Below are positions 1,053 through 17,862 of a stretch of 64,000 nucleotides of DNA, piece after piece. Made by a program: the position numbers and the translations under genes. Numbering within the stretch: the stretch's first letter is position 1; each line of letters begins with the position of its first letter. Below the pieces are notes generated by a model. The model was not told the DNA's origin. It saw only the letters and a program-made list of their open reading frames with translations, and ran no database searches. The stretch comes from Planctomycetota bacterium (GTDB lineage: Bacteria; Planctomycetota; UBA8108; SXIK01), in assembly GCA_965223265.1 (NCBI GenBank), contig OZ244999.1:4832001-4896000 (forward strand), written 5' to 3'.

Positions 1053-1640
1053 CTACGAATCCACTGCGGTTTCAGTCGCCGGCACACGAACGGGCGTCTG
1101 CCCTGCGCCGCGAAGAAACGGCGGCGCCGCAGAGCCGTGAACCAGGTGACACGTGCTGCAAGCGTCAGCCTCCTTCGCTCCTTCACTCACGGCCGCTCTC
1201 GAGGTCGCACTCGCCGCCACTGTCGGACAGGTCAAGAGCGATGCGTGACAACCGCTGCAAAGACGCGTCTGCGGCGCCGAGAGAAGCGACTCATAACGGG
1301 AACTGTGAGGGCGGTGGCAGAGAAGGCAGTCCCCCAGAGCGACAGGCCCGTGCGCGAACTTGACGCGGGCGAGGTCTTGGTGACAGTCTCCGCTGCTGCA
1401 GTTGTTGGCGCCAGAGCGGCTGGCCGGGATGCCACCGCGGACCTCGCCGTGACACTGCCGGCAATCGCCTGGGTGAGCAAAGAGAGGCATCGCCCTCCTC
1501 GCAGTCCGTGGCTCCCGCTCCGACGCACAGCTGACGACGAGCACGAGCAATGTGAATCCAACGATTCCGATCACCAATGCGCCCGTCGTAGTGCGGGAAC
1601 CGTTCGTCGCAGCTGAGTGGGGAATCTCTACTTGTGGCAC
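1053..1640 (-). CDS. Small multiheme cytochrome c lipoprotein (doubled-CXXCH type; 4 CxxCH + 1 CX4CH)
   Basis: CRQCH, CSSGDCH, CLLCH, CSGCH, CSTCH; HGPV and PH motifs; hydrophobic stretch ending LVVSC; probable GTG start at 1640 overlapping the upstream stop (start inferred). Confidence 0.8.
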   Translation of the reverse strand: MPQVEIPHSAATNGSRTTTGALVIGIVGFTLLVLVVSCASEREPRTARRAMPLFAHPGDCRQCHGEVRGGIPASRSGANNCSSGDCHQDLARVKFAHGPVALGDCLLCHRPHSSRYESLLSAPQTRLCSGCHASLLTCPTVAASATSRAAVSEGAKEADACSTCHLVHGSAAPPFLRGAGQTPVRVPATETAVDS

Positions 1641-2629
1641 AGTGTACAGTCCGACCCGTTGTCTGCGTGCGGCGGTCTCAGGTGACAACGACGGCAATCC
1701 GACGTCGCCGGTTGATGAGGCGGCGGCGGAATCGGCGTCGCCAGCTGATGACTCAGTGTCGATGCGTGACAGACGCGGCAGCCGGTCGACTCGAGCGGTT
1801 CGTGGCACGAGAGACAATGCCGTGATTGAGCCCCGCCGAATCCACCGACATGGCTCCGCGGCTCGACCTCCTGGTGGCAGCGGACGCAGAAGTTTTCCTG
1901 ATGACAAGGCGTGCACTGCGTTCGATTCAAACCGGCCTCCAGACCGTGCCCCCGACCGCGAAAGAACTCCGTGTGACTCTGCGGTTTCATGATTTGGTGA
2001 CATGCGTCGCAAGAGCTCTGAGCATGACAGATGCCACATCCTTCCTGGTGGCCACGCGAGCGTGCGATCTCGATGTCACGGCCGTGAGTGCGCAAAAAGA
2101 TATCAGAATGGTGAGATGGAGGTTTTGTGGTCGTACGGATCTCGAGATGGCAGACCGAACAGTCGGCGGCAACATCGTGCTGCCGATGGCAATCCTGGCA
2201 TGCCTCAGGACGGTTGTCTTTCAGATGCCAACGCGTCGAGTCGGCAAGCAAAGCGCCGTGGCACGCTGCGCATGGAACGTCGCGTGCGCTGTGCACTGCA
2301 TGTGAGAATTTGAGATCTGTCGACACCACCCGAGGAAGGAACGTCTGACTTGGATCTTGTTTCTGGATCTCCGTTTCGTATGGATAAGGCGCGCGCGATT
2401 CATCTTCTCCGTGACACGCGAGACAATGCCGAAACGTCGGCATTTCGGCGGTAGCGTCCGTCACACCTCCTTCATGGCATGCCCCACATGCGATCTTCTG
2501 TTCTTCATGCATGCGATGGCTGAAGCGGGCAGGACGGCTCTCGAGCAAGAGCGAACAGCCAATGAGGCCGATGACAACGCAGCACGCCGCGCCGAGCATC
2601 TTTCGTGCGCTCTCCGTGATCAAAACCAT
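1628..2629 (-). CDS. 13-heme cytochrome c (c3/c7-like repeats), probable lipoprotein
   Basis: 13 CxxCH motifs from CGACH to CTLCH; FSH motifs precede the first hemes; signal ending LIGC. Confidence 0.9.
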   Translation of the reverse strand: MVLITESARKMLGAACCVVIGLIGCSLLLESRPARFSHRMHEEQKIACGACHEGGVTDATAEMPTFRHCLACHGEDESRAPYPYETEIQKQDPSQTFLPRVVSTDLKFSHAVHSARDVPCAACHGALLADSTRWHLKDNRPEACQDCHRQHDVAADCSVCHLEIRTTTKPPSHHSDIFLRTHGRDIEIARSRGHQEGCGICHAQSSCDACHQIMKPQSHTEFFRGRGHGLEAGLNRTQCTPCHQENFCVRCHQEVEPRSHVGGFGGAQSRHCLSCHEPLESTGCRVCHASTLSHQLATPIPPPPHQPATSDCRRCHLRPPHADNGSDCTLCHK

Positions 2630-4008
2630 ACCCTGAACCCTGAAGTGACGACGTGGTACTCGCTGTGCGAATCTTTTTCATACCGGTACTGGCTGTCGAG
2701 ATGAAGCCAGTCGGTCGCTTTCCACAGCACCTTCACATAGTAAAGTCGGTCACGGTCGCGCTCGGTGCCCGTGAATTCATCGAACCTGTAGAGAGAATAG
2801 TCCGTGCCGATGCGGATGCGCCAGGCTTTCGCGAAGCGCTGTTCAGCCTCAACGCCGGCCGCGTAGATCTCGTCATTGTCAGAGTTGAAGAGGTCCCCAC
2901 GCAGAGAGATCCTCCCGCCACGCCACACATCGCGCGCGTCGAATGACAAGTAAACGTTCTGGTATTCGTGATTGAAGAGCCCCTCGTCCGACGAATCCTC
3001 GAGCTCGCGGACGCTGACACCCGTCCCGACGCCAAAGTGCTCGGCGATGGGCTGGTGAGCATCGATCTGGTACTGAAAGAACGGCGCGTAACTCCCCTGA
3101 ACGAGCTGGAAGGCCGAAAGCTCACTTGAGAGGAAATCAACGATGCCGTTCTGTCGCAGCACCCTGCCGTACACCGAAGACCCCCAGTTCTTTGAGACGT
3201 AGCGCAGGTCGATCAGCTGGCGCCGGTCTCGCTCTTCAACCCACGACGCCGAGACGTTCGTCGACCACTCGTCCGTGATCCTATAATCAGCGTGAATGGC
3301 GTACAGGTCGTCGTTGGCATCGGGCGCGGAATCTCTTCGATCGCGGATGAAGAAGTAGTCCGCACCGAGGCTCAAACCGTCGAGAGGCGTCGATTCGACG
3401 CCAACTCCGGTGAGCAAATCACCGGAGGGAGAGCTTTCGTAGAGATGCGCCGGCACGCCGGCGTAGAGATCGGCGGACAGTGTTTTCCACACTTTCGACT
3501 TAGCGTGCGCGCCGTCGAAGAGAATCCCCTCCTCGCGATGAATACGCTGTCGGCCAAATCGCAAATGCTCAAGCACAGAGAAATCAGCCACCTCCGCGTA
3601 GGCCGAGTGCAAGAAGGCGTGAAATCGGTCTCCAAACGTGTTCGAGACATCCGTGAAGGGTACGAAGCCGCGACTGTCGCTCGCGCTGCGAAACCCATCG
3701 ATATCGAGATCATAGCTGCCCTGAAAGTGAAAACCGACCTCGCCATAGGGTCGCTCATGCCGCGCTTCGGGATGCGGGTAGGCCATATCGAGCGTGAGAA
3801 AGCCGTAGACGTCTTGGTCCCTGGCGTCGTCGACCGATGAAGACCGAAACCTGTAACGTTGACTGAGGTTGCCGGAGATTTCCGCAGGCGCCGCTTTTTC
3901 GCTCTCGTCTTCCTGCGCTCCCAGATGTGGCGCGCAAAGTGGAGGGCAGAGCGCCGTGCAGGCAGCCGCAGCACAAACGACGGAAAGAAGGCGGTCCCGA
4001 GTCGCCAT
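2620..4008 (-). CDS. Outer-membrane beta-barrel, probable porin of a porin-cytochrome complex
   Basis: Signal peptide; alternating aromatic/hydrophobic beta-strand pattern; C-terminal SGFRVWF ending in Phe; lies between multiheme cytochrome genes. Confidence 0.75.
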   Translation of the reverse strand: MATRDRLLSVVCAAAACTALCPPLCAPHLGAQEDESEKAAPAEISGNLSQRYRFRSSSVDDARDQDVYGFLTLDMAYPHPEARHERPYGEVGFHFQGSYDLDIDGFRSASDSRGFVPFTDVSNTFGDRFHAFLHSAYAEVADFSVLEHLRFGRQRIHREEGILFDGAHAKSKVWKTLSADLYAGVPAHLYESSPSGDLLTGVGVESTPLDGLSLGADYFFIRDRRDSAPDANDDLYAIHADYRITDEWSTNVSASWVEERDRRQLIDLRYVSKNWGSSVYGRVLRQNGIVDFLSSELSAFQLVQGSYAPFFQYQIDAHQPIAEHFGVGTGVSVRELEDSSDEGLFNHEYQNVYLSFDARDVWRGGRISLRGDLFNSDNDEIYAAGVEAEQRFAKAWRIRIGTDYSLYRFDEFTGTERDRDRLYYVKVLWKATDWLHLDSQYRYEKDSHSEYHVVTSGFRVWF

Positions 4009-4014
4009 AAGCTG

Positions 4015-6144
4015 CTACGGCTCCTCGGTGAATCGATAGTCGGGCCACGACCCGAACGCCACGCCGCGATGACAGGCGACACACGAGTTGAGTACGGCGG
4101 GAGAACCGTCGAGGTGCATCTCTTCGCTGACTTTCGGTGAAATCGCACCAAAGGTGTGTGAGGAGATATCGCCGCGGACGACGAAACCGTCGAGGTCGCG
4201 AACCCACTCGGCGCTCCGCGCGGTGCGCGGCATGTGGCACAGCGTGCAGCGTCCGAGTCCCTGTTCGGATCCCGGATCGCCGTACGGTGCCGGCCCGATG
4301 TTCATCGCCACGCCGATCTGATCGAACGTGCGGAGCAGAACGTGAGAGTTGAGCGCTTGTCGTACCGCTGCGGGAAACTGGCCAGCACCCGGATCGGCAA
4401 CTGCGCTCGGTTCAACCGCGTCGAAATCGCCGCGCCCAGAGTGGCAATCAAAGCAGAGGACGTTGTTGTCGGCCGGGGCGACAAGTTGCGCAGCGAACGT
4501 GCGGTCGTGAGCGTCGTGACAATCAAAACAGACGACGATCTGACGCTCGTTCAACGCGTGCGCCGACCTGACATGATCAAAGTAGTGCTGCCTTTGCTGC
4601 TTGGAGTGGTCAAAGTCGCTTCCGAACGGCCGGTCGCGCCACGAGGCGCTGTCGTCCACCGCGAGATCAACGGTGTCGAGGAAGCCGCCACTGGTTCCGA
4701 AGTGCGGCAGAATGTCGCGCCCACTCGGCGTGCCGAAGAACTCGGCCGGACTCTGACCAGGTGTGAAAAACTCCACTGCGCCGCTCAACGCATCGTTCCG
4801 CGCGGGGTAGTCTCCACCACCGTCACCATCGATGAGGGCGTTTCCACGACCGCGGATGTGGCACTGGCCGCAAAGCATCTGCGCCCGCCCAGGGGACAAG
4901 TACTGCGGCTGCACGATGGATCCGCCGCGGTCTTGGGCGTGCTGGGAGCCTGGGCCATGACAGCGCTCACAACCGACGTTCATCTCGTCGAGGTTGCCGT
5001 CGCCATCGTAGTCAAACGGCCCACCCGGATCGGCCACGGCGTGGGCCTGGAAGAGACCGTCGCCGCTGCGCGTTAGTGACATCCCGGTGAAGTGACAGCC
5101 GGCGCAGCGGTTGTCGAAAGAGTCTCGCGGCTCCGGGACACGCAGCGGCCGGTCCCCATCGACCGCTGGCGGCTCCCAGTGCTCGGCGTCGTAATCCGTC
5201 CAGGCGGGCACCGTGACCTCGCCACGCCCGACGTCGCCACGAGTCTCGGAGAACTGCGCCGGCAGGACCTGATAGGTACCGAGCGTTGCGTCCGCCGTGT
5301 GGCGCCCCTGCGCGCTGAGGCGCGTGACGTACAGCTGCTTGAATAGTCCTTCGCCACCGTACGAGAACTCGACGTAAAGTGGCTCGGAGACGCGCGCCTG
5401 GTCGTCACTTTCGACAGCCTGAAAAAATCCCGCTGCATCCCTGCCCAGAAGGATGCTGTACCCCTCGTTGCTGTCGACGCGATACCCGAAACCATCACCC
5501 CCGCCTGTGTTGTCATGGGGGTTCCCGTCCGCGAAGTAGGCTAGGCCCGCGTCGACGACCGGGAACTGTGAGAGATCTTGAAGCGAGGATGGTTCGGAAC
5601 CGGCGGCCGTCACGCGGCGCAGTCCGATCGAATGCAGCGTTCTCATATGTCCTGATGCGTCGGCGTGGCATTCGAGGCATCGGGAAGACCCCACATAGGC
5701 AGCGTCCTCAGGTGGTCGATCCGAAAGTTCGACCGTCAAATCGGTCAGAGCCTCGCCACTGTCGACCACCAACGCGGATCGCGATACGCTCCCGCCAGGC
5801 AAGTATCCCGAAATTGCCGCGCGCGCGAAGAGGAAATAACGCCCAGGGGGAAGCGAAACCGAGAACCGGCCGTCGGCGTCCGTCGACGCGGACGTTGTCG
5901 CGCTGCTCGTGCAATCCTCGAGGGGTTGGAGCGACATCGAAGCGGCGACTTCAGCCGCTGGGATCAAAAAGACCGTGGCGTTGATGCCGGCTCCATTACC
6001 GACGACGCGGCCACTGACGCTTCCGTCGGCAGGCGGAGCCGAGGAGTCTGAGCTACAGCCGAGAGAGAGAGCGCAGACGAGATAGCCGAAGAGTCGAACG
6101 AGTCGAACGAGTCGAGTGCCAAACAGGCAGCGCGCTGAATCCAT
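4015..6144 (-). CDS. Octaheme cytochrome c lipoprotein with N-terminal carboxypeptidase-regulatory-like beta-sandwich
   Basis: LSLGC lipobox; VSGRV...TDADGRF...LPPGRY; YVGSSRCLECH, CAGCH, CERCHGPG, CGQCH, CFDCH x2, CTLCHMP, CVACH. Confidence 0.85.
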   Translation of the reverse strand: MDSARCLFGTRLVRLVRLFGYLVCALSLGCSSDSSAPPADGSVSGRVVGNGAGINATVFLIPAAEVAASMSLQPLEDCTSSATTSASTDADGRFSVSLPPGRYFLFARAAISGYLPGGSVSRSALVVDSGEALTDLTVELSDRPPEDAAYVGSSRCLECHADASGHMRTLHSIGLRRVTAAGSEPSSLQDLSQFPVVDAGLAYFADGNPHDNTGGGDGFGYRVDSNEGYSILLGRDAAGFFQAVESDDQARVSEPLYVEFSYGGEGLFKQLYVTRLSAQGRHTADATLGTYQVLPAQFSETRGDVGRGEVTVPAWTDYDAEHWEPPAVDGDRPLRVPEPRDSFDNRCAGCHFTGMSLTRSGDGLFQAHAVADPGGPFDYDGDGNLDEMNVGCERCHGPGSQHAQDRGGSIVQPQYLSPGRAQMLCGQCHIRGRGNALIDGDGGGDYPARNDALSGAVEFFTPGQSPAEFFGTPSGRDILPHFGTSGGFLDTVDLAVDDSASWRDRPFGSDFDHSKQQRQHYFDHVRSAHALNERQIVVCFDCHDAHDRTFAAQLVAPADNNVLCFDCHSGRGDFDAVEPSAVADPGAGQFPAAVRQALNSHVLLRTFDQIGVAMNIGPAPYGDPGSEQGLGRCTLCHMPRTARSAEWVRDLDGFVVRGDISSHTFGAISPKVSEEMHLDGSPAVLNSCVACHRGVAFGSWPDYRFTEEP

Positions 6145-6185
6145 GGTGAAGAATCATCAGGTGGTGCTGGATCGACCGAGCGCAC

Positions 6186-6217
6186 CGTTGATTCTACCGC
6201 CATGATACGAATCAACG
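6186..6217. promoter_or_regulatory. Perfect 9-bp inverted repeat (CGTTGATTC-N14-GAATCAACG) between the two divergent cytochrome operons; candidate operator
   Basis: Arms seen at 6186-6194 and 6209-6217; function is inferred. Confidence 0.35.
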
Positions 6218-6312
6218 TCGCAAGAAATCGTTCTGTCTCATTGCCCGTGTGTTTGCTACAGTTTGAGCGCAAGGCAAGAAGGCCTCCGATCATCCGACAT
6301 GGCGGAACCAAA

Positions 6313-7452
6313 ATGGCTTCCAAGCTCCGCACCCGCCACCATCGCATCGCAACTCTGCTCGTCGCGTTCGGACTTGTGGCAGGCGTGGCGATTGTGCCGT
6401 CCCTCTCGCAGGAACGACGCCCGACGACACGTCGGAGCACATCCGCGAAGGACAAAACGCGTCGCGACTTCAATGCCAATTGCCTCAGCTCGGGCTGTCA
6501 CGCTCAGCTCAAGGAGCACGAGCAAGTCCACGGCCCTGTCTCCATCGGCGCTTGCCAAGTTTGTCACGCCGCCGCCGGAGCGCAAGAGGACCACAAGTTC
6601 AAGCCGACACGGTCGCCGGCGGAGCAGTGCTCGTTTTGCCACCAGCCCGCCAGCAAGGGTGAGTCGATTCACAAGGTCTTCGCCGATCGCGACTGTCTTG
6701 CATGTCACGATCCGCACGGCGGATCCACCCGTGCCCTCCTCGTCACGACCGACCAATCAGCGCTCTGTAAGAAGTGTCACGAACCTAAAGCTCCCGGCAC
6801 CACCGAGGCCTCTCCTCAAGCGGCGACGGTCGAACAGACTTTTGAAAATCTGCACTATCAAGCAGGCGGGAAAGCGTGCCTCGACTGCCACCGCGCCCAT
6901 CAGTCAGAATTCGCCAGGCTTCTACACCAACGTGAAGATACGGCATGTTTCAGCTGTCACGATCGTTCCATCGCAAGGGCAAACCTGCCAAACGTCCGTG
7001 ACGTCAAGTCAGAGGTCGCGACCGCGAAGCACGTCCACAAGCCGATCGTAGAGGGCAAGTGCGCCGGCTGCCACGCCTCCCATTCCGTCGACAGCGCCCA
7101 CCTGTTGAAATCGACCTACACTTCAGAATTCTACATGCCGTTCTCAGACAGCGCTTATCGCCTCTGCTTTGAGTGCCATGACAAGTCGCTGGCGACGGAT
7201 GACCAAAGAAGCGCGACGTCATTTCGAGACGGCGCGCGAAATCTGCATGCCGTCCATGTCAACCGCGACAAGGGGAGGACCTGCGCAGTCTGCCACGACG
7301 CACATGCAAGTGCGCTACCGGGGTTGATCCGCCAGAGTGTTCCCTTCGGACCAGGCGGATGGCAACTCCCGATCGGTTTTGAAAAAACAACAACAGGTGG
7401 AACCTGCGCTTCTGGATGTCACAAAAAGATGAGTTACGACAACAGTAAGTAG
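6313..7452 (+). CDS. Periplasmic multiheme cytochrome c, doubled-CXXCH family (9 CxxCH + CX4CH + CX3CH)
   Basis: Signal/TM after MASK; CLSSGCH, CQVCH, CSFCH, CLACHDPH, CKKCH, CLDCH, CFSCH, CAGCH, CFECH, CAVCHDAH, CASGCH; FRDG..NLH motif. Confidence 0.9.
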   Translation: MASKLRTRHHRIATLLVAFGLVAGVAIVPSLSQERRPTTRRSTSAKDKTRRDFNANCLSSGCHAQLKEHEQVHGPVSIGACQVCHAAAGAQEDHKFKPTRSPAEQCSFCHQPASKGESIHKVFADRDCLACHDPHGGSTRALLVTTDQSALCKKCHEPKAPGTTEASPQAATVEQTFENLHYQAGGKACLDCHRAHQSEFARLLHQREDTACFSCHDRSIARANLPNVRDVKSEVATAKHVHKPIVEGKCAGCHASHSVDSAHLLKSTYTSEFYMPFSDSAYRLCFECHDKSLATDDQRSATSFRDGARNLHAVHVNRDKGRTCAVCHDAHASALPGLIRQSVPFGPGGWQLPIGFEKTTTGGTCASGCHKKMSYDNSK

Positions 7453-7492
7453 CCGGTCTCGATTTCTCTCCGCGGCGACGACACTAGAAGCG

Positions 7493-9310
7493 ATGAGAAC
7501 ACCATTCCTCAGACGTTTTCTCCATCCGCTGGGCATCTTCGGTCTTCTATTCGTAGCGATAGGGTTCGGAGGTAGCGTTGTCGGGCTGGTCGTCGACCTT
7601 GTCACCGCCGAGGAACCGCGGCCCTATGAGGGCCTTCTGACCTTCTGCCTGTACCCGTGTGTCATGTTTTTTGGCATCGCGCTTCTGCTGCTGACCTTGT
7701 GGCTCGAGCGCCGGCGAGCCCGCAAACTCGAAGCGAAGCAGATCGATTGGCGGCCGCGGCTCGACCCACGCGTCAAGCGGCACCGGCGGCTCATTGCAGG
7801 GCTCGTCTTCACTGCATTGATGTTCCTTTCCTTGAGCATCGTCGGTGCGATCGGCGCGCTTCGATTCATGGAGTCGAATCGCTTCTGCGGGGAGATGTGC
7901 CACGCACCGATGGAGCCCCAACACGTCGCGCATCAGTTTTCTCCCCATGCGAACGTCGACTGTGTCCAATGTCACGTCGGTCCGGGAGCCGCGGCGTACG
8001 TCGAAGCCAAAGTCTCTGGTCTTCGCCAACTTTCCCAGATGCTAACGGACAGTTACCCACGTCCGATCCGTGCCCACCCCATGGACGTACCGAGTGCAGA
8101 CGCCACATGTATCGGCTGCCACTGGCGCGAGCGCTACCATGGAGAGCAGCTCAGTCAATACGTGCGATACGGATTCGACCTGAAGAACACGCGTCGCGCT
8201 GTACGACTCGTTCTGAACGTCGGCGGTGGAAATTCGACGTTCGGAGCGCGGCAAGGGATCCACTGGCATGCCAATCCTGAGAACCGTGTTTGGTTCCGGT
8301 CGACGGATCCTTTCCACCAGGAGATTCCATGGGTCAAGGTCGAACGCGCCGACGGAACAGTGGCTGTCTACAAGCGTCAGGATGCGAGCGCCGATGACGA
8401 TCCCGATGGCAGCGATGAGGCGATCCATTTGATGAGCTGTCGCGATTGCCACAACCGCCCGGCACATCGTTTCATGCTTCCGGACGACGCGGTCGACCTG
8501 GCGCTGGAGAGCGGTGGCATCGACCGTTCAATCCCGTCGATCAAGACCGTCGCGGTCAGCGCCCTCGGAAAGACCTACGCGACCGTCGACGAGGCGCTTT
8601 CTGGGATTCGCTCCGCCGTGGAGCAGTTCTATAGCGACACGCTTCCGTCCGTCCTCGCCACCCGGCGCGAGGAGATCGAACGTTCGATCGCTGCGCTTCA
8701 TGACATCTATCGAAGGAATGCTTTTCCCGAGATGAACGTGAACGGCTACACGTTTCCTGACAACTCTGGGCATCTCACATTTCCGGGTTGTCTTCGATGC
8801 CACGACGGCAAGCACACGTCCGACGACGGCACGGTTCTCTCCGGCGACTGCCAGCTCTGCCACCGCTTCGTGACGCGTTCACCTGAAGACGGCACGCTCC
8901 GCGAAGTGCCGACCGCGAGCGCCGTACTCCACCCGTTCAAACCAGAGCACCACGAGCAGATTGACTGCTGGACGTGCCACTCGGGTAGCACGACTCCCTA
9001 CGCCAGCTGTATGGAATGCCATCCCAACGCCACAAACGGACACGCGATGGCTTTTCAGTGCTCGATCTGTCACAAACCCGAGTCAACGGATCACGCCGCA
9101 TCGACCTGCGGTCCGTGCCATCCTCTGAGCGGATCGCCTCTGCACCAACACGCAGAGCATCGCGACTGCGTGAAATGTCACACTCCCCACGGATGGAATG
9201 CGGAAATTCCCGCAAGCTGCACGCCATGCCATGAAGAATCCCTCGATGCGAACGGATTCAAGGGTGTGGAGTCGACGTTCTACGGCTTGCCATCAAGAAC
9301 GCGTGGGTAA
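7493..9310 (+). CDS. Inner-membrane NapC/NirT-family multiheme cytochrome c (ImcH-like) with C-terminal heme extension; 12 heme motifs
   Basis: Three N-terminal TM segments; FCGEMCHAPM, SPHANVDCVQCH..AKVSGLRQ, CIGCH, GIHWH, CRDCHNRPAH, GCLRCHD, then 7 more CxxCH. Confidence 0.88.
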   Translation: MRTPFLRRFLHPLGIFGLLFVAIGFGGSVVGLVVDLVTAEEPRPYEGLLTFCLYPCVMFFGIALLLLTLWLERRRARKLEAKQIDWRPRLDPRVKRHRRLIAGLVFTALMFLSLSIVGAIGALRFMESNRFCGEMCHAPMEPQHVAHQFSPHANVDCVQCHVGPGAAAYVEAKVSGLRQLSQMLTDSYPRPIRAHPMDVPSADATCIGCHWRERYHGEQLSQYVRYGFDLKNTRRAVRLVLNVGGGNSTFGARQGIHWHANPENRVWFRSTDPFHQEIPWVKVERADGTVAVYKRQDASADDDPDGSDEAIHLMSCRDCHNRPAHRFMLPDDAVDLALESGGIDRSIPSIKTVAVSALGKTYATVDEALSGIRSAVEQFYSDTLPSVLATRREEIERSIAALHDIYRRNAFPEMNVNGYTFPDNSGHLTFPGCLRCHDGKHTSDDGTVLSGDCQLCHRFVTRSPEDGTLREVPTASAVLHPFKPEHHEQIDCWTCHSGSTTPYASCMECHPNATNGHAMAFQCSICHKPESTDHAASTCGPCHPLSGSPLHQHAEHRDCVKCHTPHGWNAEIPASCTPCHEESLDANGFKGVESTFYGLPSRTRG

Positions 9311-9437
9311 TTTGAGCGCTGCCTTGACCTCACAACCGCCGCGCTCCTACCATCGAAGGTAGACCGTCGAAAGGTTCGGAGCCCCCGGGATGGGGCAACC
9401 CCTCGGCTAATTGAGGCGAGAATGCGAGCAAAGAGAC

Positions 9438-11582
9438 ATGCCCGAACAGAGCCTTCATCGAACGATCTTTGCGCCGCGAGACGACGCGCGCGAGAGACGA
9501 ACTTCATGGTCGAAGAACTCATGGACGACTCGGTGCGCAGCTCTCTTGACACTCACGGTGGCGATTGGCTGCAGCGAGGACACGGAGAGGATCACGAACG
9601 TCACCGTCGAGTCGGATGCATCGCTTGGCGCTGGCCTGGAGATGACCATCCATTCGGTCGAGATCAGTAGCAACCCTGGTGTCGTCGTCGAGTTCAGCCT
9701 TGCGAGCGACGAGGGTCCGCTCTCCCTGTCCGATCTCGATTCCAACCCGCGCTTCGTTTTGGCCTACATCGACGTCGATCCCGTCTCGGGTCTGTCGCGT
9801 TACCAAGCTTATACGGTCGCCGATGTCGCAGGGGAAGAGTTCGTCTTCGAAGGCGAGGTCCGACAACCAGCTCTCGAGGAAGCCCCGCAGGTCGTGTCGG
9901 ACTCAGGAGGGGTGTTCGAAGAGCTCGGCGACGGCAACTTGCGCTACACCTTCGGTACGGAGTTGCCGAACGATTTCGATCGCAGCGCCACGCACACACT
10001 GGCTGCTTGGGTTTCGCGGCAGAATCGACAACTGGTGTCAAATCCAGTTTTCTCGTTTGTCCCCGGCGGTGGGCCCGTGACACTGACGCGTGAGATCGCG
10101 CCCACGGCGGCGTGCAATTCATGCCACGATCCGCTGGCGATCCATGGTGGCACCCGACGCGCGATGGGACTTTGCGTGGTCTGTCATACCGACCAGACCG
10201 TTGACCCCGAAACAGGTGAGAATCTGGAACTTTCGCAGCTGGTCCACAAGATTCATCGCGGCGGGCAGCTTGCCGTCAAACCGTACTTCGTCGTCGGTTT
10301 TCGTCAGAGCGTCCACGATTACTCGGATCTCGGCTACCCACAAGACAGCCGCAACTGCACAACTTGCCATCAAGAAGACGGGGCCGACGCCGATCACTGG
10401 CGGCTGCACCCCTCACGTGCAGCGTGTGGATCGTGCCATGATGAGATCGACTTCGAGACGGGCGAGAACCATCTCGGCATCCAACAATTCGACGACATCT
10501 TCTGCACCAACTGTCACCGCGGCGAACAGGTTGTCGAGTTTGACAACAGCGTGCCGGGAGCACACGTCGTGCCCTACTTCAGCTCAGCGAATCCAGATCT
10601 GACGCTGGCGATCACTGATGTGATGAACATGACGCCGGGGAACCAGCCAAGCGTGCGTTTCACGATCACGGACGTCTCCGGCCCTGTGGACATCGCGAGC
10701 CTCAGCAGCATCTCGATGCTGTTTGCCGGTCCGACAACAGACTACAGTCAAATCATTGGGGACCATCGCTTTTCCATCAGCGGCACGGGCTTGATGGAGA
10801 ACGCTGTCGGCGACTACACTTTCGCACCGGACGGGTATCTTCTCCCGATCGATGCCAACGGCACTTGGAGCATCGGCATGGAGGCGCGCACAAACGCAAT
10901 TGCAGTAGGCGCACCAGGCGACACTGAGGACATCCGTTTCGGCGCGAACAACCCGGTCGTCCACATCGACGTTGCCGATGGAACCCTCGGGGGTGGCTCT
11001 CCGCTGGCGCGGCGAGCGATTGTCGACGAGGCCGCCTGTCAACGCTGCCATGAGAATATTCTGGAGCACGGCAATCTTCGGACCGACCTCGAGTATTGTC
11101 TCCTGTGCCACAACCTCTGGGCGACCGACGAGAGCCGGCGCCCCGGTGTCGACGCGATCTCAAACCCACCGGAGAGTGTCGACTTCAAGCTCATGATTCA
11201 CCGCATCCACACCGGCGAGGAACTCGAGAACCCTTATGTCGTTTTCGGCTTCGGCGGGACGGAGCACTCCTACAACGACGTTCGATATCCAGGCGATCGA
11301 CGCAACTGTGAGGCCTGTCACACCGCATCGACGGAGTCCTTGCCGCTGCCGGCGACCACTGGGCCGACCGTGGTTCACATAGGCGGCGTGCCGCTCGATC
11401 TCCCGACCGCGATCCGCACGCCGGCAACGAGCGCATGCACGGGTTGCCACGACGGCGAGGCCGCGTTCACCCACGCGCGTCTCAATTCGATCGTCGTCGA
11501 CGAGACAGACGCTTCGGAGAGCTGTAGCGTCTGCCATGGGAGTGGGCGATCTGAAGCGGTCGACGATGTGCATGCCCGATGA
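9438..11582 (+). CDS. OmcA/MtrC-family decaheme cytochrome c lipoprotein
   Basis: VAIGC lipobox; 2x5 heme layout (CNSCH..HGG.R, CVVCH, HKIH, CTTCH, CGSCH, CTNCH / CQRCH, CLLCH, HRIH, CEACH, CTGCH, CSVCH) separated by beta-rich domains; start uncertain. Confidence 0.88.
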   Translation: MPEQSLHRTIFAPRDDARERRTSWSKNSWTTRCAALLTLTVAIGCSEDTERITNVTVESDASLGAGLEMTIHSVEISSNPGVVVEFSLASDEGPLSLSDLDSNPRFVLAYIDVDPVSGLSRYQAYTVADVAGEEFVFEGEVRQPALEEAPQVVSDSGGVFEELGDGNLRYTFGTELPNDFDRSATHTLAAWVSRQNRQLVSNPVFSFVPGGGPVTLTREIAPTAACNSCHDPLAIHGGTRRAMGLCVVCHTDQTVDPETGENLELSQLVHKIHRGGQLAVKPYFVVGFRQSVHDYSDLGYPQDSRNCTTCHQEDGADADHWRLHPSRAACGSCHDEIDFETGENHLGIQQFDDIFCTNCHRGEQVVEFDNSVPGAHVVPYFSSANPDLTLAITDVMNMTPGNQPSVRFTITDVSGPVDIASLSSISMLFAGPTTDYSQIIGDHRFSISGTGLMENAVGDYTFAPDGYLLPIDANGTWSIGMEARTNAIAVGAPGDTEDIRFGANNPVVHIDVADGTLGGGSPLARRAIVDEAACQRCHENILEHGNLRTDLEYCLLCHNLWATDESRRPGVDAISNPPESVDFKLMIHRIHTGEELENPYVVFGFGGTEHSYNDVRYPGDRRNCEACHTASTESLPLPATTGPTVVHIGGVPLDLPTAIRTPATSACTGCHDGEAAFTHARLNSIVVDETDASESCSVCHGSGRSEAVDDVHAR

Positions 11583-11620
11583 AACGATTTTTTTGCTAAC
11601 GCCAACGAACAGGGGAATTG

Positions 11621-11995
11621 ATGAGTGAATCGACCAGTCTCTATGCGCGTCTCGGTGGCTACGACGCCATCGCAGCCGTCACCGAAAACCTGCTGCAACG
11701 TCTCATGTCGGATCAGCTTCTCGGTCGCTTTTGGGCTCATCGTGGCGCTGACGGTCTGCGACGCGAGAAGCAGCTGCTGATCGATTTTCTCTGCGCGTCC
11801 GCAGGCGGCCCCCTCCTCTACACCGGCCGCGACATGAAGGTGTCCCACGAAGGCATGCGCATCAGCGAGGCCGATTGGTCGGCCTTCATAGGCCACGTCG
11901 AGGCCACGCTCGATCATTTCGAGGTCCCATCGACCGAGCGCGGCGAGGTACTCGCGTTCGTCGACAGCACGAAGGCCGACATCGTCGAGGTGTGA
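11621..11995 (+). CDS. Group 1 truncated hemoglobin
   Basis: SLYARLGG, FLCASAGGP..YTGRDM..SH.GM.I; RBS AGGGGA upstream. Confidence 0.9.
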   Translation: MSESTSLYARLGGYDAIAAVTENLLQRLMSDQLLGRFWAHRGADGLRREKQLLIDFLCASAGGPLLYTGRDMKVSHEGMRISEADWSAFIGHVEATLDHFEVPSTERGEVLAFVDSTKADIVEV

Positions 11996-12067: not shown

Positions 12068-14803
12068 TCAGCGGCAAGAACTAAAGGTGCTACAAGCCAG
12101 GCCATCAGGTGTCGTGTCGAGCCCGCAGTGATCGAATGGCGCCGCCGGCACCGGGCCGGATTGAAAGAGGTAAGACAAGAGCGCGAGTGCGTCGTCAAAA
12201 TTGATCGCACCGTTGTCGTCGACGTCGACCGCTCGCGCGCAGGCAAATCCCTCCCCGGCGAAGAGCACTCGCAGGATGCGAATCGGGTCCGCGATGTTGT
12301 GGCGACCATCATCGTTCGCGTCGCCGCGCTGAAACGCACCTTCCTGACAGCGGTCAAGCGTGCCGTCGGCATCGCTGTCGAGACTGAGCGGTGACGATAA
12401 GAACCTCAGAACGGAGAGACTGCTCCCGGCCGCCACCATGACCGCGCCGGTGCCGGCTCCATCGAGCCCCAAGGAATCGACCCAAAGCGGAAAATCACCA
12501 ACGACACGAGACTTCGATTCAGTGAGAGCGCCGGTACCGTCATTGACCAGAACGACGAGCTCGCTCCCCAAGACTTGAACGTCATAGTCGAACCGCTCGG
12601 TGCTAGCCCGTGCCACGTCGATGTCACCGTCGGAATCGAAGTCACCGATAGCGATCGAACTTGCCACGAACGGATCCTCATACACAGCGCCTTCCACGAA
12701 CTCATAACCCTCGCGCTGAAACAGCACGGACGTCGCGCCGATGGTTGTATTGTCGCGAGAAAAAGAACGATCGAGAACGACGTCGTCTTTGCCGTCATGG
12801 TCGAAGTCGCCGACTCTCAGATCTCTCAAAGACCCTCCTACGGGCGAAGAGTCAACTGCCAACGCGACCTCCCGTCCATCATTGCGTAGGAACGCGAGTT
12901 TCGCCCCGCCAACGACGAGGTCGAGGAATCGATCGCCGTCGAGCTGGATCTTCTCGACGAAGAGGGGATGAAAACTGAAGTCGGCGGCGTACAGCTCTTC
13001 GAACTCCCCTTGGCCTCGATGCGTGAGAACGACGAGCGACGAATCGCGGGCGTCAGGCCTGATGACAAAGTCATCGCGGCCGTCCAGATTGAGGTCTAAC
13101 ACGTGAAGCATCCAACCAGGAAGCGTAAAAGATTGCTGCTGAGAATACTCGAATCGCCCGGTGGAAACGAACGCGATCATATCGCGAGAAGACGACTGGA
13201 CGATCAGGTCGGCACGCCCGTCGGCGTCGAGGTCTCCGGTCCGAGCAGTCGCGATCTCGACTGCCGATTCCCCATCGAAAACGCGCTCAAGCCCAGCGGC
13301 GCCGCGATTCTCGTAGACCTGAAGGCGCTGGCGATCTGGCACAACGAAAGCGTCTCTGTCGCCGTCGGCGTCGAGATCTCCAGCCATCGCCGCCACGGGC
13401 CAGTACTGCGGCGTTTCGGTGTCGAGGAAATGGGGGTAAACGTCCCGCCCGAACGCCGCCGATCTCGGACTCCCCATGAGAAACGCAACGGTTCCGGCTT
13501 TCGGGAGGGTGACGGCGAGGTCGACGAGTCCGTCCCCGTTGAGGTCGCATGCATCGAGGTCGGAAGGTACTTCAGTCGCAACGTTCAGCCTCTGGAGCAG
13601 CGTGAAACGGGCAGCGCCGTCGTTCGCCCAAATCGTCACGAAGGTATCACGAATGAGGATGGCATCTTCAGTCCCATCACCATTGACGTCCCCTAGAGCA
13701 ACCGAACTACTGTTCGATTCCATGGGAAAACGGCCCAGCATGAGCCCGGGTCGCAAATGGTCTACGTTTGTGTAGGTGCTCTCGCCAGTGCGCAGGAAGA
13801 CGAGTCCGTCACCGGTCACCACGTCGAGCCAAGAGTCGCCGTTGAGATCTGCGATTTCGACGCCATATCCGATCACGAGGTCCAGTTCACCCGCCGGTGC
13901 AAAGTCGAAGCCAACACGATTCGCGAAGACGGTGCCAAAGCCGTGCTCGATAGCAATCAAATCAGGCAGTTGATCGTTGTCCATGTCAGCAGCGGTGAGC
14001 CAACCCCCGTGCGCAGCAGCACGTTGAGGCGACAGGAATCGCCCCCCTCCAGCGCCTGGCAGGATCCACAATGCACCGCGAGCGCCGACGGCGAGATCGA
14101 CGACTGTGTCCTCGTTGAAATCAGCCGCGACCGCCGAGATCGCCCGAAACGTCAATTGAATTTCAACGACCTTCTCGAACGTGCGCGCGGCGGACTGTCG
14201 CATCAGGATCGCGCGCGTCGTGCGCACGGCCGGCTGAAAAAGGATCAGATCCTGTCGGTCATCGCCATCGAAGTCGACGGTCACAGAAAAACGGCTGACG
14301 ACGGGAATGCGTGTCGTCGAACCGAATCGGCCCTCGGAGTGCCCCCAGAAAACGACCATTCCCGAACGTGTGCTCGCGATGAGATCCGCTTCACCGTCGC
14401 CGTTGAGGTCGTCGACCGTTGAGATGTCGACTCCGTCGACGTCCACGCTCTCCGATTCGAAGGCGCGGAACCGCGGCGTGGATTCACACTCATCCGGAAA
14501 TCGATCGTCGTTGCAGTCAGCCGCCGTTCCGGCGGCGATCTCACAGGCGTCGACGCGGCCGTCGTTGTTACAATCGGCAACGGAGAGCTCACACTCGTCG
14601 AGGACGCCGTTCAGGTCGCAGTCGACGCTTGAGTCCTCTACAATCTCGCAGGCGTCAAGTATCCGGTTGTGATTGCAATCGTCCGCGACCGATGGCGCCG
14701 CCCCCATGCTGCAGTCGGCACCGAGTACGACGCCTGCCGGGCGCATCCCGATGAGGACAGGGTTTGCGATGGCAACGATCGTCAGAGTCAGTGCGACGCG
14801 CAT
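12068..14803 (-). CDS. Secreted FG-GAP/VCBS beta-propeller protein with DCNxNGxxDxCE repeats and C-terminal dockerin-like domain
   Basis: Signal peptide; four N-terminal DCxxxxxxDxCE repeats; many DxDxDGxxD repeats; FQRGDANDDG..NIADP...DVDDNG.INFDDA..LLSYLF. Confidence 0.85.
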   Translation of the reverse strand: MRVALTLTIVAIANPVLIGMRPAGVVLGADCSMGAAPSVADDCNHNRILDACEIVEDSSVDCDLNGVLDECELSVADCNNDGRVDACEIAAGTAADCNDDRFPDECESTPRFRAFESESVDVDGVDISTVDDLNGDGEADLIASTRSGMVVFWGHSEGRFGSTTRIPVVSRFSVTVDFDGDDRQDLILFQPAVRTTRAILMRQSAARTFEKVVEIQLTFRAISAVAADFNEDTVVDLAVGARGALWILPGAGGGRFLSPQRAAAHGGWLTAADMDNDQLPDLIAIEHGFGTVFANRVGFDFAPAGELDLVIGYGVEIADLNGDSWLDVVTGDGLVFLRTGESTYTNVDHLRPGLMLGRFPMESNSSSVALGDVNGDGTEDAILIRDTFVTIWANDGAARFTLLQRLNVATEVPSDLDACDLNGDGLVDLAVTLPKAGTVAFLMGSPRSAAFGRDVYPHFLDTETPQYWPVAAMAGDLDADGDRDAFVVPDRQRLQVYENRGAAGLERVFDGESAVEIATARTGDLDADGRADLIVQSSSRDMIAFVSTGRFEYSQQQSFTLPGWMLHVLDLNLDGRDDFVIRPDARDSSLVVLTHRGQGEFEELYAADFSFHPLFVEKIQLDGDRFLDLVVGGAKLAFLRNDGREVALAVDSSPVGGSLRDLRVGDFDHDGKDDVVLDRSFSRDNTTIGATSVLFQREGYEFVEGAVYEDPFVASSIAIGDFDSDGDIDVARASTERFDYDVQVLGSELVVLVNDGTGALTESKSRVVGDFPLWVDSLGLDGAGTGAVMVAAGSSLSVLRFLSSPLSLDSDADGTLDRCQEGAFQRGDANDDGRHNIADPIRILRVLFAGEGFACARAVDVDDNGAINFDDALALLSYLFQSGPVPAAPFDHCGLDTTPDGLACSTFSSCR

Positions 14804-14959
14804 GGTTGGGTTCCTCGCGTCCCAGGGGAACTACCCGGTGCCCACGGCCAAACCGGCCACAAAAGACTTCTTCTCGCGAGCTTGATGCCTCCAGGCTCTT
14901 TCCTCTACGATAAACCCGAGTCCAAACTTTTCATCCCAGTTTCTCGTGAGTACAGCACC

Positions 14960-16288
<1,329 letters not shown>

Positions 16289-16393
16289 GTGTCGGACAGA
16301 GTGGATTGTCGGCGGAGATCGTGTGCGACTCGGTCCATGGGCCGAGTCGCGTGCGATCAAAGAACGCCCCATTTCTGCTCCCGAGATGGTGAT

Positions 16394-16527
16394 CGTTCGA
16401 CCAGCTCCTCGACCGTCACCGCGCCTTCATGGCAGGCTGGAGGTCGATCCTCGTCGAGGACGGACGCCCCGTGCGCCTCGACGCCGTGCCCGCGGACTGG
16501 CAGTCGCCCGTCGAGCTGCCGAACCAA
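16394..16527. repeat. 134-bp perfect inverted copy of 18081-18214 (3' coding segment of the 18030-19166 gene)
   Basis: CGTTCGACCAGCTCC...GCTGCCGAACCAA equals the reverse complement of 18081-18214 by manual alignment. Confidence 0.92.
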
Positions 16528-16725
16528 CGGAGCTGGCAGCAACTCGCTCGAATCGAAGCCATCCAGCCGGATACGGATGATAGTTGCTTACGCCCTGCTG
16601 AAGCGGTGAAATCATTGAGCCTGGATATCGCAAAAGGGGAACACGGCAAGAAAACCTGCCGCGTTCGGCGTCAAGATCACACCGCGCAGAGCGAACAGAT
16701 CGTGAAACGTTGACGCAGTTCGTTC

Positions 16726-17862
16726 ATGACGGCTCCTTTCCTGACAATGGTTGAGCCATCATCGGAAGACATTCTACACCTCCCCATAGTCAGAGTCGCG
16801 GAAGCTCGCAGCTGGGTAACGCCCTTGGTACAATCTTCTGCGTCAAGGCGGAGGGTGACCCTCGACGTGAAGTTCTGGCGCGTCGTGCAAACGCGCACTC
16901 ATCTCGACGAGGTGTTGGCGAGCGGCAGGCATTTGACGCGCACGACGAACAGACCGTATCGCGGTTTCCCTGACTACCAACGGATGCGCTTGTTGCTACA
17001 GGAGACATTCGCCGTCTCCGGTCCTGCGGTTCTCATGACGGTCGGAGACTTGGAATACTGGCGTTGTCAATATGGCGACCCGGCAGTCGCCATGCAGACA
17101 TGCCAACTGTGGGAAAGCGACAACGCAGAACTCGTCGGATTCGCCTGGCCCGAAATTGCCCCGGATGGGTCAGCAGTCGTCGACCTATGTGTTGGTACGC
17201 CCTTCAATGACTTGTTCGGTCACATAATAGCGTGGTCCGAATCCAGCCTTCGACACCAGATGCCGTCCGGCTTGGACAAACTGGACGTTACGACAACGTG
17301 CCTCGAGCGGGACACGGATTGGGCGGCGCTCTTAGTAGACCGTGGATGGACACGCACGAACGAGTTTTTCCATTGGTACCGGGTACGGTCCCTACACACT
17401 CCTCTACCCAACTGCGTCTGCCCTGCCGGTTACAGCCTACGTGCGGTAGAGCTCGAGACCGACGTGCACCAAGTAGTCGCGGTCAACAATCGTTCGCGCG
17501 CAGGGCCTTCTCTGACCGATGCGACGTTCCGAGCGATGGTGGACTCTCCGATGTACCGGCGAGAGCTGAATCTCGTCGCGTTGGCGGCCGATTCCACTGT
17601 CGCTGCGTTCTGCACGGTGTGGTACGACGACCGCAACCGATTCGGCCTGTTCGAACCGGTTGGTTGCGAACCTCACCATCGCCGTCGCGGTGTCACGCAA
17701 GCGTTAATGACGGAAGCAATGCGACGCTTACAGCGTCTGGGCGCGACTTACGCCTTAGTGGCCAGCGCGGCGACTAACGAAGCAGCCAACCGACTGTATG
17801 ACTCGCTGGGTCTCGAACCCCGCAACCAGAAGTGGACGTGGAGGAAGACTCTCTATCGATGA
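16726..17862 (+). CDS. GNAT-family N-acetyltransferase (two-domain type); true start probably near 16933
   Basis: VGDLEY, AAFCTVWYD, FEPVGCEPHHRRRGVTQALM, NEAANRLYDSLG acetyl-CoA motifs. Confidence 0.85.
   Translation: MTAPFLTMVEPSSEDILHLPIVRVAEARSWVTPLVQSSASRRRVTLDVKFWRVVQTRTHLDEVLASGRHLTRTTNRPYRGFPDYQRMRLLLQETFAVSGPAVLMTVGDLEYWRCQYGDPAVAMQTCQLWESDNAELVGFAWPEIAPDGSAVVDLCVGTPFNDLFGHIIAWSESSLRHQMPSGLDKLDVTTTCLERDTDWAALLVDRGWTRTNEFFHWYRVRSLHTPLPNCVCPAGYSLRAVELETDVHQVVAVNNRSRAGPSLTDATFRAMVDSPMYRRELNLVALAADSTVAAFCTVWYDDRNRFGLFEPVGCEPHHRRRGVTQALMTEAMRRLQRLGATYALVASAATNEAANRLYDSLGLEPRNQKWTWRKTLYR

Follow-up and report, generated by a model that had tools for sequence, protein, structure and literature searches.

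A probable porin–cytochrome conduit, unlike MtrAB in sequence, encoded by two divergent gene sets in a Planctomycetota genome

The sequence analysed here (the window) is a 64,000-nucleotide stretch from a Planctomycetota bacterium (GenBank assembly GCA_965223265.1, contig OZ244999.1, positions 4,832,001 to 4,896,000), the genome of which is a single, closed contig of 9,179,496 bases. Positions 1053 to 11995 of the window hold eight genes in two divergent sets, encoding six multihaem cytochromes, a predicted outer-membrane beta-barrel and a truncated globin. We think it reasonably likely that this locus specifies a porin–cytochrome conduit for extracellular electron transfer (EET) that is distinct from MtrAB and does not reproduce any described system gene for gene.

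Genes of the minus-strand set are lettered g1 to g4 and those of the plus-strand set g5 to g8, and all coordinates are window positions unless stated otherwise. Listing and translation of open reading frames (ORFs) recovered all eight where a first-pass annotation, made from the letters of the sequence, had placed them. Its account of two divergent operons (minus, g4–g3–g2–g1; plus, g5–g6–g7–g8) also held, as did, on a count of motifs, its tally of six cytochromes with 5, 13, 8, 11, 12 and 10 haem motifs (59 in sum, four of them non-canonical). The features are as follows, with lengths in amino acids (aa).

g1, 1053–1640, minus strand: four CXXCH and one CX4CH; small 5-haem cytochrome, probable periplasmic relay
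g2, 1628–2629, minus strand: 13 CXXCH; 13-haem lipoprotein of 333 aa, proposed wire threading the barrel
g3, 2620–4008, minus strand: no haem motif; predicted outer-membrane beta-barrel of 462 aa with ~22–24 strands
g4, 4015–6144, minus strand: eight CXXCH; 8-haem lipoprotein, member of the OcwA/NrfA superfamily with an N-terminal beta-sandwich, proposed surface partner
Divergent intergenic region, 6145–6312, no strand: presumed promoter region of both operons, from gene orientation and the g5 start
g5, 6202/6313–7452 (likely ATG at 6313), plus strand: nine CXXCH, one CX3CH and one CX4CH; 11-haem cytochrome
g6, 7493–9310, plus strand: 11 CXXCH and one CX3CH; 12-haem inner-membrane cytochrome of ImcH-like architecture, proposed quinol oxidase
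g7, 9411/9438–11582, plus strand: 10 CXXCH; OmcA/MtrC-family decahaem lipoprotein, proposed surface reductase
g8, 11618/11621–11995, plus strand: Pfam Bac_globin; truncated (bacterial-like) globin, last gene of the plus operon

Stop-to-stop frames with at least four CXXCH motifs number 23 in the whole 9.18-Mb genome and six of these fall inside the 11-kb stretch, where the density of haem motifs is far above the genome background. Each cluster gene is single-copy in the genome, except for the globin gene g8, which has two paralogues elsewhere. Gene spacing is tight and operon-like: the gap between g4 and g3 is 6 bp, while g3 and g2, and likewise g2 and g1, overlap by ~10–13 bp if the likeliest start codons are taken. 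Scans for promoters, terminators and inverted repeats gave counts no higher than shuffled expectation, with nothing inside the divergent intergenic region. A search for RNA data turned up none, the four entries that carry the sequence being DNA contigs of a single study. The planctomycete origin proposed at first pass was corroborated by 98 genomic matches to PSD1 (PF07587) against none in 14 control genomes, and the closest named homologues came from Pirellulaceae or from Planctomycetota metagenome-assembled genomes (MAGs). The planctomycete-typical DUF1559 (PF07596) had no match in the genome—possibly a limit of the initial step of the search—and none in the controls either, so that this test is uninformative.

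The evidence that carries our reading begins with the pairing of the barrel gene g3 and the 13-haem gene g2. We compared 44 related loci (numbered below with the prefix L), 36 of them from a scan of species-representative genomes and eight from relatives. In 42 of the 44, the gene immediately 3′ of the barrel gene, and on its strand, is g2-like, and 36 of those 42 g2-like proteins have exactly 13 CXXCH motifs. Two loci depart from the pattern: in L036 the barrel is cut by the contig start, although the 13-haem gene still follows, and in L038 a shorter, 6-haem g2-like ORF comes after the barrel. By title, the 36 scan loci include 26 assigned to Planctomycetota, Planctomycetia, Planctomycetaceae or Pirellulaceae, one MAG of the anammox order, three Deltaproteobacteria, one Nitrospirae and one Spirochaetota, the rest being named simply ‘bacterium’. 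The pairing of barrel and 13-haem genes is thus strictly conserved and forms a strong pattern.

The product of g3 matched no Pfam or NCBIfam family. Its AlphaFold2 (AF2) model—computed from an alignment with 15 of 17 non-self homologues, two short ones (P0005 and P0015) having been left out—reached a mean predicted local distance difference test (pLDDT) of 78.2 and a predicted template-modelling score (pTM) of 0.71, and consists of a disordered signal region (residues 1–37) followed by 24 beta elements, the chain ending ...RVWF with a C-terminal Phe. By prediction g3 is thus a beta-barrel, as the first-pass annotation had supposed; the predicted barrel is large and empty (plug-less), with 22–24 strands. 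Foldseek returned porins and usher barrels at E ~1e-9. A structural search independent of Foldseek ranked 22-strand TonB-dependent receptor barrels and 24-strand usher barrels at the top, with BT1762 SusC (Z 18.1), Cir, the colicin I receptor (Z 17.7), PapC usher (Z 17.5) and FimD usher (Z 17.3) as matches; MtrB (6r2q_B) stood at rank 30 with Z 13.8, a similarity that reflects only the common fold of large barrels. The model would place g3 in the size class of barrels that normally enclose a plug or pass a polypeptide. At sequence level, a g3 family profile found no chain in the PDB below E 0.4, MtrB included, and none of the 41 barrel family members matched Pfam MtrB_PioB at E<=0.1.

Run against 1.84 billion representative clusters, a profile built from the 41 barrel sequences recovered 1082 at E<=1e-3, of which 593 remained at E<=1e-30, pointing to a sizeable protein family that has neither a Pfam or NCBIfam model nor a name; naming it would better the annotation of iron-cycling potential. 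One further barrel homologue (L012:9922-11169, on G014:C76) contains an in-frame TAG, is maybe a pseudogene or an assembly error, and was excluded from the barrel alignment.

For g2, an alignment of 46 sequences (g2 itself and the 45 near-full-length proteins among 74 non-self matches) showed no variation in any of the 13 haem motifs, in the lipobox Cys25 or in twelve other His residues. The family profile matched ActA, the pentahaem subunit of alternative complex III (ACIII), at E 2e-24 (8k9e) and E 2e-22 (6lod), as well as the c7-type dodecahaem GSU1996 of Geobacter (3ov0) at E 5e-21. MtrA (6r2q_A, the chain that we take to be MtrA) was not among the matches of this profile of 46 homologues at E<=0.01; g2 scored 16.1 bits against the DmsE/MtrA family TIGR03508, for which the cut-off is 192.2, and a Foldseek comparison of g2 with 6r2q_A gave E 8.3. 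Meaningful Foldseek matches of g2 were confined to its ActA-like N-terminal half, where the model is good. Taken with the MtrB_PioB result, the TIGR03508 and MtrA-profile tests agree with the first-pass view that the barrel and 13-haem module is not MtrAB-like in sequence.

Joint prediction of g3 and g2, using our own alignments, gave ipSAE values of 0.43, 0.61 and 0.56 (median 0.56), the best of three controls reaching 0.00, with at least 48% contact agreement among runs, partner pLDDT of at least 63 and no interface reported. The outcome was rated ‘weak support’: among solved complexes 116 of 157 attain the mark applied, as do 2 of 215 mismatched pairs, and at ipSAE <=0.60 it is reached by only 18 of the 157 solved complexes and by both of the mismatches that passed. 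We do not count this predicted complex as evidence.

In at least eight of the related loci, the pair has near it genes for a 4Fe-4S protein and for a membrane protein of the NrfD type, often after a small 4–5-haem gene (L040 at 12846-17644, L020, L032, L037, L042, L044, L046, L050 and L051); L040 has a molybdopterin subunit in this module as well. Together with the ActA-like N-terminal half of g2, these neighbours suggest that the system and alternative complex III are linked in evolution, and the presence of the module near the pair suggests that the inner-membrane entry point varies across the family. The window itself is without such a module, and the ACIII-like genes of the genome lie at 1.153–1.160 Mb.

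The third component beside the pair also varies, being either a large 10-haem protein or a g4-like 8-haem lipoprotein; the window holds both. Fifteen of the 17 large 10-haem neighbours tested scored above the curated OmcA/MtrC cut-off, the other two being those of L034 (175 bits) and L031 (138 bits), while in eight of the 44 loci a g4-like gene shares the cluster with the pair, either next to it or at most a few kb away. One locus, L026, has barrel, 13-haem, g4-like, g7-like, 11-haem and 4-haem genes in one row, which is nearly the content of the window.

The first-pass assignment of g7 to the OmcA/MtrC family proved sound. The protein scored 435.6 bits against TIGR03507 (cut-off 209.3) over model positions 48–672, and a search of the whole genome with the same model gave an identical result for g7; nothing in the 14 control genomes scored above the cut-off, and hence the controls contain no Shewanella or Geobacter reference. 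PF22113 (domains II/IV) matched two stretches of g7 with 171 bits. Its ten CXXCH motifs are split five and five between two pentahaem domains, a lipobox (AIGC) lies at residue 54, and the protein matches MtrF at E 1.2e-30 and OmcA at E 2.3e-22.

The other candidate surface protein, g4, has eight CXXCH motifs, a lipobox (LSLGC) and a match to Pfam CarboxypepD_reg that falls below the cut-off. A profile of six homologues matched OcwA (6i5b, E 1.3e-18), its relative 6qvm (E 1.1e-14) and NrfA (2j7a, E 1.3e-6), the single sequence giving weaker values (E 2e-4 and 1.5e-3), and by these matches g4 belongs to the OcwA/NrfA multihaem superfamily. A motif count found no CXXCK active-site motif in g4. 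OcwA is described, in the text available to us, as the cell-surface terminal reductase of Thermincola that also reduces nitrite and hydroxylamine (code 6I5B in PMC6703420).

At the inner membrane, g6 has hydrophobic segments at residues 5–39, 46–73 and 98–127, with CGEMCH at residue 132, five residues after the third helix. An NrfH-like stretch (residues 105–211) scored E 1.7e-10, below the equivalog cut-off, and comparison with NrfH (2j7a_C) gave E 2.6e-5. ImcH is characterised, in the part of PMC6295460 available, by three N-terminal transmembrane helices, a CX3CH motif beside the third, NapC/NirT-like similarity and five to nine CX2CH motifs; the same 2018 survey reports no ImcH homologues in Planctomycetes. 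The helices, the CX3CH motif and the NrfH-like region of g6 therefore match the ImcH architecture, in line with the Geobacter-like inner part proposed at first pass, although its 11 CXXCH motifs fall outside the reported range of five to nine. Strong g6 homologues were found in six of the 44 loci, all six with three transmembrane helices and CX3CH. As a lead only, atlas neighbours of g6 were extended NapC/NirT clusters of Myxococcota, Planctomycetota, Thermodesulfobacteriota and Acidobacteriota.

Two further cytochromes are probable periplasmic relays. The first, g5, matched Pfam Paired_CXXCH_1 with 124 bits, has an N-terminal anchor or signal, scored 65 bits against the DmsE-family model TIGR03508 (below the cut-off of 192) and resembles chain A of the Mtr complex 6r2q (E 5.7e-9); similar proteins occur in three of the 44 loci. 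The second, g1, lies in an ORF spanning 1053–2039, with its likeliest start a GTG at 1640, just past the g2 stop, and has an N-terminal hydrophobic anchor or possible lipobox (LVVSC) and a Paired_CXXCH_1 match of 58 bits. Small 4–5-haem ORFs of 150–350 aa are present in 25 of the 44 loci; a jackhmmer search from g1 drifted onto all multihaem proteins, and orthology of small 4-haem neighbours to g1 cannot rest on it.

The truncated haemoglobin named at first pass was borne out by a match of g8 to Pfam Bac_globin (50.5 bits against a cut-off of 21, residues 7–122). Its place in the system was not: none of the 44 related loci has a g8 homologue, and g8 is a local add-on, perhaps for handling O2 or nitric oxide (NO). 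Its two paralogues, 62% and 40% identical to g8, are close together at 5891048-5893644 of the genome contig (G000 C1).

Joined together, these parts suggest the following path. The ImcH-like g6 would oxidise menaquinol at the cytoplasmic membrane, and the anchored periplasmic cytochromes g5 (11 haems) and g1 (five haems) would relay the electrons to the 13-haem lipoprotein g2, which, lodged inside the 22–24-strand barrel g3, would carry them across the outer membrane. On the surface, two lipoproteins—the OcwA-like octahaem g4, encoded beside the barrel, and the OmcA/MtrC-type decahaem g7—may then deliver the electrons to an acceptor that is large or insoluble, for example Fe(III) or Mn(IV) oxides, humic matter or an electrode. 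Our observations comprise the parts list with its motifs, the assignment of g7 to its family, the fold predicted for the barrel and the synteny of the pair; for every step of the path, including localisation, assembly, electron direction and acceptor, we infer from protein families and from the anatomy of characterised relatives. On this footing, the locus is probably a real, coherent and functional porin–cytochrome conduit.

Several points weigh against this reading. All localisations were called by eye from signal and lipobox motifs. The AF2 model of g2 has an overall pLDDT of 66.7 and falls below 50 over residues 177–289, and because the model is poor there, the rod shape of g2 and its fit in the barrel are a proposal. 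Adjacency in 42 of 44 loci does not amount to 42 independent events, since the loci were found via the barrel and many are mutually related. The barrel was found in just 12 of 41 related genomes, with its own genome counted, and in 3 of 25 among the high-quality ones, which marks the porin–cytochrome system as accessory. A CX8-15C disulfide in domain III is attributed to all clades of outer-membrane multihaem cytochromes and, in Shewanella, credited with an oxygen-dependent gating of flavin binding (available text of PMC4486940), and g7, with no Cys outside its haem motifs after residue 54, is without it. Finally, as its superfamily includes periplasmic nitrite, hydroxylamine and sulfite reductases, g4 could be an enzyme and not a mineral reductase. 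As a separate observation, the globin gene g8 lies directly 3′ of the disulfide-less g7.

The same hardware might instead run inward, with extracellular Fe(II), Mn(II), reduced humics or a cathode as the electron donor and the quinone pool or oxidases of a mostly aerobic heterotroph as the recipient. Mtr-type porin–cytochrome modules (MtoAB, PioAB) are described as working both ways (passages of PMC6295460 and PMC8805035), the operon's globin gene may be a sign of life in the presence of O2, and a two-gene core with no fixed outer partner resembles the iron-oxidiser modules discussed in part of PMC4245776. However, ImcH homologues have so far been implicated solely in quinol oxidation, according to the available text of PMC6295460, and the characterised members of both surface families, OmcA/MtrC and OcwA, are terminal reductases; we regard an inward flow as rather unlikely.

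The possible enzymatic role of g4 leads to another account, in which the locus is a periplasmic or envelope redox-enzyme system: g4 would reduce a soluble nitrogen or sulfur oxyanion or detoxify NO or hydroxylamine, the barrel would be a substrate porin, the other cytochromes an electron supply and the adjoining truncated globin a means of handling NO. That the g4 profile also matches NrfA nitrite reductases (E 1e-6) is in keeping with this, as are the reduction of nitrite and hydroxylamine by OcwA in vitro (available text of PMC6703420) and the warning, in the part of PMC13264449 available, that porin–cytochrome clusters can serve non-metal substrates such as dimethyl sulfoxide. Yet g4 is without the CXXCK active-site motif, and elsewhere the g4-like octahaem fills the third, surface role that is otherwise held by OmcA/MtrC decahaems. 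Moreover, the barrel is tied to the 13-haem gene (42 of 44 loci) and not to g4 (8 of 44), a plug-less barrel of 22–24 strands is far larger than a substrate porin requires, and none of the 44 related loci has the globin. We judge this account unlikely.

Least probable, in our view, is that the two operons are functionally separate, with g4–g3–g2–g1 a self-contained outer-membrane module, g5–g8 some other pathway and their adjacency incidental, for while strong g6-like and g5-like proteins are indeed scarce (6 and 3 of the 44 loci) and at least eight loci have the 4Fe-4S and NrfD module near the pair instead, L010 and L023 put ImcH-like and OmcA/MtrC-like genes, and L026 11-haem and OmcA/MtrC-like genes, beside the pair on the same strand, and an outer-membrane module needs an inner-membrane donor in a genome that has one copy of each gene.

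Read as an outward conduit, the locus follows the same logic as MtrCAB of Shewanella: a large barrel, a neighbouring gene for a multihaem wire and a surface lipoprotein cytochrome, with g7 belonging to the OmcA/MtrC family and the g3 model aligning to MtrB. It differs in detail at each part. The MtrB chain has 649 residues against the 462 aa and ~22–24 strands of g3, with no sequence match in any of the 41 family members; the g2 wire, a lipoprotein of 13 haems with ActA/c7-like modules, does not match MtrA; the gene order, barrel then cytochrome, differs from that of MtrCAB; and g7 is without the domain III disulfide. In the text available to us, Baker et al. (2022) report clustered mtrCAB in three phyla and do not mention Planctomycetes.

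By description, the locus is also close to the porin–cytochrome complexes (Pcc, or PCC). In the available part of their paper, Shi et al. (2014; PMC4245776) describe two-gene clusters of a porin and a 338–344-aa cytochrome with 12–14 haems in Kuenenia (kuste4024/4025) and Anaeromyxobacter, which, likened by description only, look to be of the same type as g3 and the 333-aa, 13-motif g2. Their operational definition of a Pcc, as given there, fits a locus in which g4–g3–g2 are contiguous and the pair is kept in 42 of 44 loci, and the outer cytochromes, which they found to be variable and not to co-evolve with the pair, behave in the same way here. The barrel and 13-haem genes also occur as a pair in L030, the MAG of the anammox order; a search seeded with its homologue returned 11 proteins, for which ‘Candidatus Brocadiales bacterium’ was the sole name at order level, none being named as Kuenenia. 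The present locus differs from Pcc in that the wire is a lipoprotein and the outer partners are of OmcA/MtrC or OcwA type and not of OmcB type.

The remaining comparisons concern single components. ImcH, the inner-membrane quinol oxidase of Geobacter sulfurreducens for high-potential acceptors, resembles g6 in its helices, its CX3CH motif and its NapC/NirT-like region; g6 differs in having 11 CXXCH motifs where the family has five to nine, and the likeness, drawn from a partly available published description, is one of architecture. With OcwA, the NrfA/c554-like surface nonahaem of Thermincola potens, g4 shares a profile match (over just ~190–260 profile positions), a CHGPGS-type motif region and a predicted surface role; it differs in having eight haems and not nine, a lipobox, a CarboxypepD_reg-like beta-sandwich, a diderm host and a porin neighbour. 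At the level of whole clusters, the EET1–4 systems of peat Acidobacteriota and Verrucomicrobiota (bioRxiv 10.64898/2026.05.27.727921), described in 2026 and likened here by description, are divergent clusters of a porin with MtrC-, MtrA- or OcwA-like cytochromes, and iron-reducing Limisphaera (PMC13608581), from Verrucomicrobiota, the sister phylum of Planctomycetota, has porin-associated cytochromes; the available text of neither work treats Planctomycetota clusters.

The first-pass suggestion that this may be an undescribed architecture stands in part. The locus does not match a described system gene for gene, yet the pair has already been labelled: the MAG OFTM248 is reported, in the available text of PMC10732223, to have, upstream of an NrfD-type cluster, a PCC that serves iron reduction. 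Locus L040 comes from OFTM248, so the barrel and 13-haem family has been labelled PCC once; the gene order in L040 is 8-haem gene, barrel, 13-haem and 5-haem, followed by molybdopterin, 4Fe-4S and NrfD genes. Planctomycetota PCCs or novel multihaem clusters are also mentioned, without description in the parts available, in bioRxiv 10.1101/2022.03.26.485925 and PMC13264449. In the literature available to us, which was in part limited to excerpts, we found no paper dissecting or testing such a Planctomycetota architecture, although supplements may list such clusters, and for non-anammox Planctomycetota no described conduit, just generic PCC labels in MAG surveys. What sets the system apart is its combination of parts—a barrel family without a name, a 13-haem lipoprotein wire of ActA/c7 derivation and a surface partner of OmcA/MtrC or OcwA type—and it is not categorically new.

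Non-anammox planctomycetes are usually regarded as aerobic degraders of polysaccharides, are abundant in sediments, in soils and on mineral crusts, and are to our knowledge not known as respirers of metals or electrodes. More tentatively, we raise the possibility that the barrel and 13-haem lipoprotein pair forms a third major lineage of trans-outer-membrane conduit beside Mtr and Geobacter Pcc, centred on Planctomycetota, with an ActA-derived wire and either type of surface partner. Were this doubtful proposal true, MtrC-family proteins would be portable terminal modules untied from MtrAB, and many non-anammox planctomycetes could respire extracellular acceptors. The occurrence of OmcA/MtrC decahaems on a non-Mtr porin in many loci bears on conduit modularity and evolution and on the engineering of electroactive cells. 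The whole predicted pathway lies within 11 kb of a closed genome, and would be directly testable if the strain were cultured. Dissimilatory iron reduction went unreported in Verrucomicrobiota until September 2026 (available text of PMC13608581).

Elsewhere in the genome there is a second, divergent porin–cytochrome pair (G000 C1:6548137-6550829; L054:3137-5829, minus strand), in which the cytochrome is a 254-aa, 9-haem relative of g2 (207 aa aligned at 32% identity). The next gene encodes 657 aa ending ...YQYRF, and hhalign (probability 99%, E 2e-18) shows this product to be a remote paralogue of the barrel family. The order of this second pair is reversed, the cytochrome coming before the barrel, and a gene for a SurA-like chaperone adjoins. 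A third multihaem cluster (G000 C1:1901905-1913537; L053:4906-16538) encodes a 4Fe-4S flavoprotein, a membrane protein that matches DUF4405 weakly, cytochromes of 20 haems (617 aa) and 10 haems (315 aa), glutamyl-tRNA reductase, a 952-aa, 11-haem protein and a 571-aa protein resembling outer-membrane proteins that ends ...TFRW and has no Pfam match; this last protein, at 1.906 Mb, was considered as a barrel paralogue and rejected (hhalign probability 15%).

Within the window, the cluster is flanked by an aminotransferase gene and by that of an FG-GAP/dockerin-type protein, and the remainder of the 64 kb holds genes of ordinary metabolism without further cytochromes. The FG-GAP repeat protein (911 aa, 12068–14803, minus strand) has a dockerin-like C-terminal end, and proteins like that end are encoded within a few kb of the pair in seven of the 44 loci (L010, L013, L014, L015, L016, L023 and L034); such a neighbour could be a common planctomycete domain that is there by chance, or a surface partner. 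In L013 to L015, the sole large neighbour of the pair is a haem-less protein of ~640 aa.

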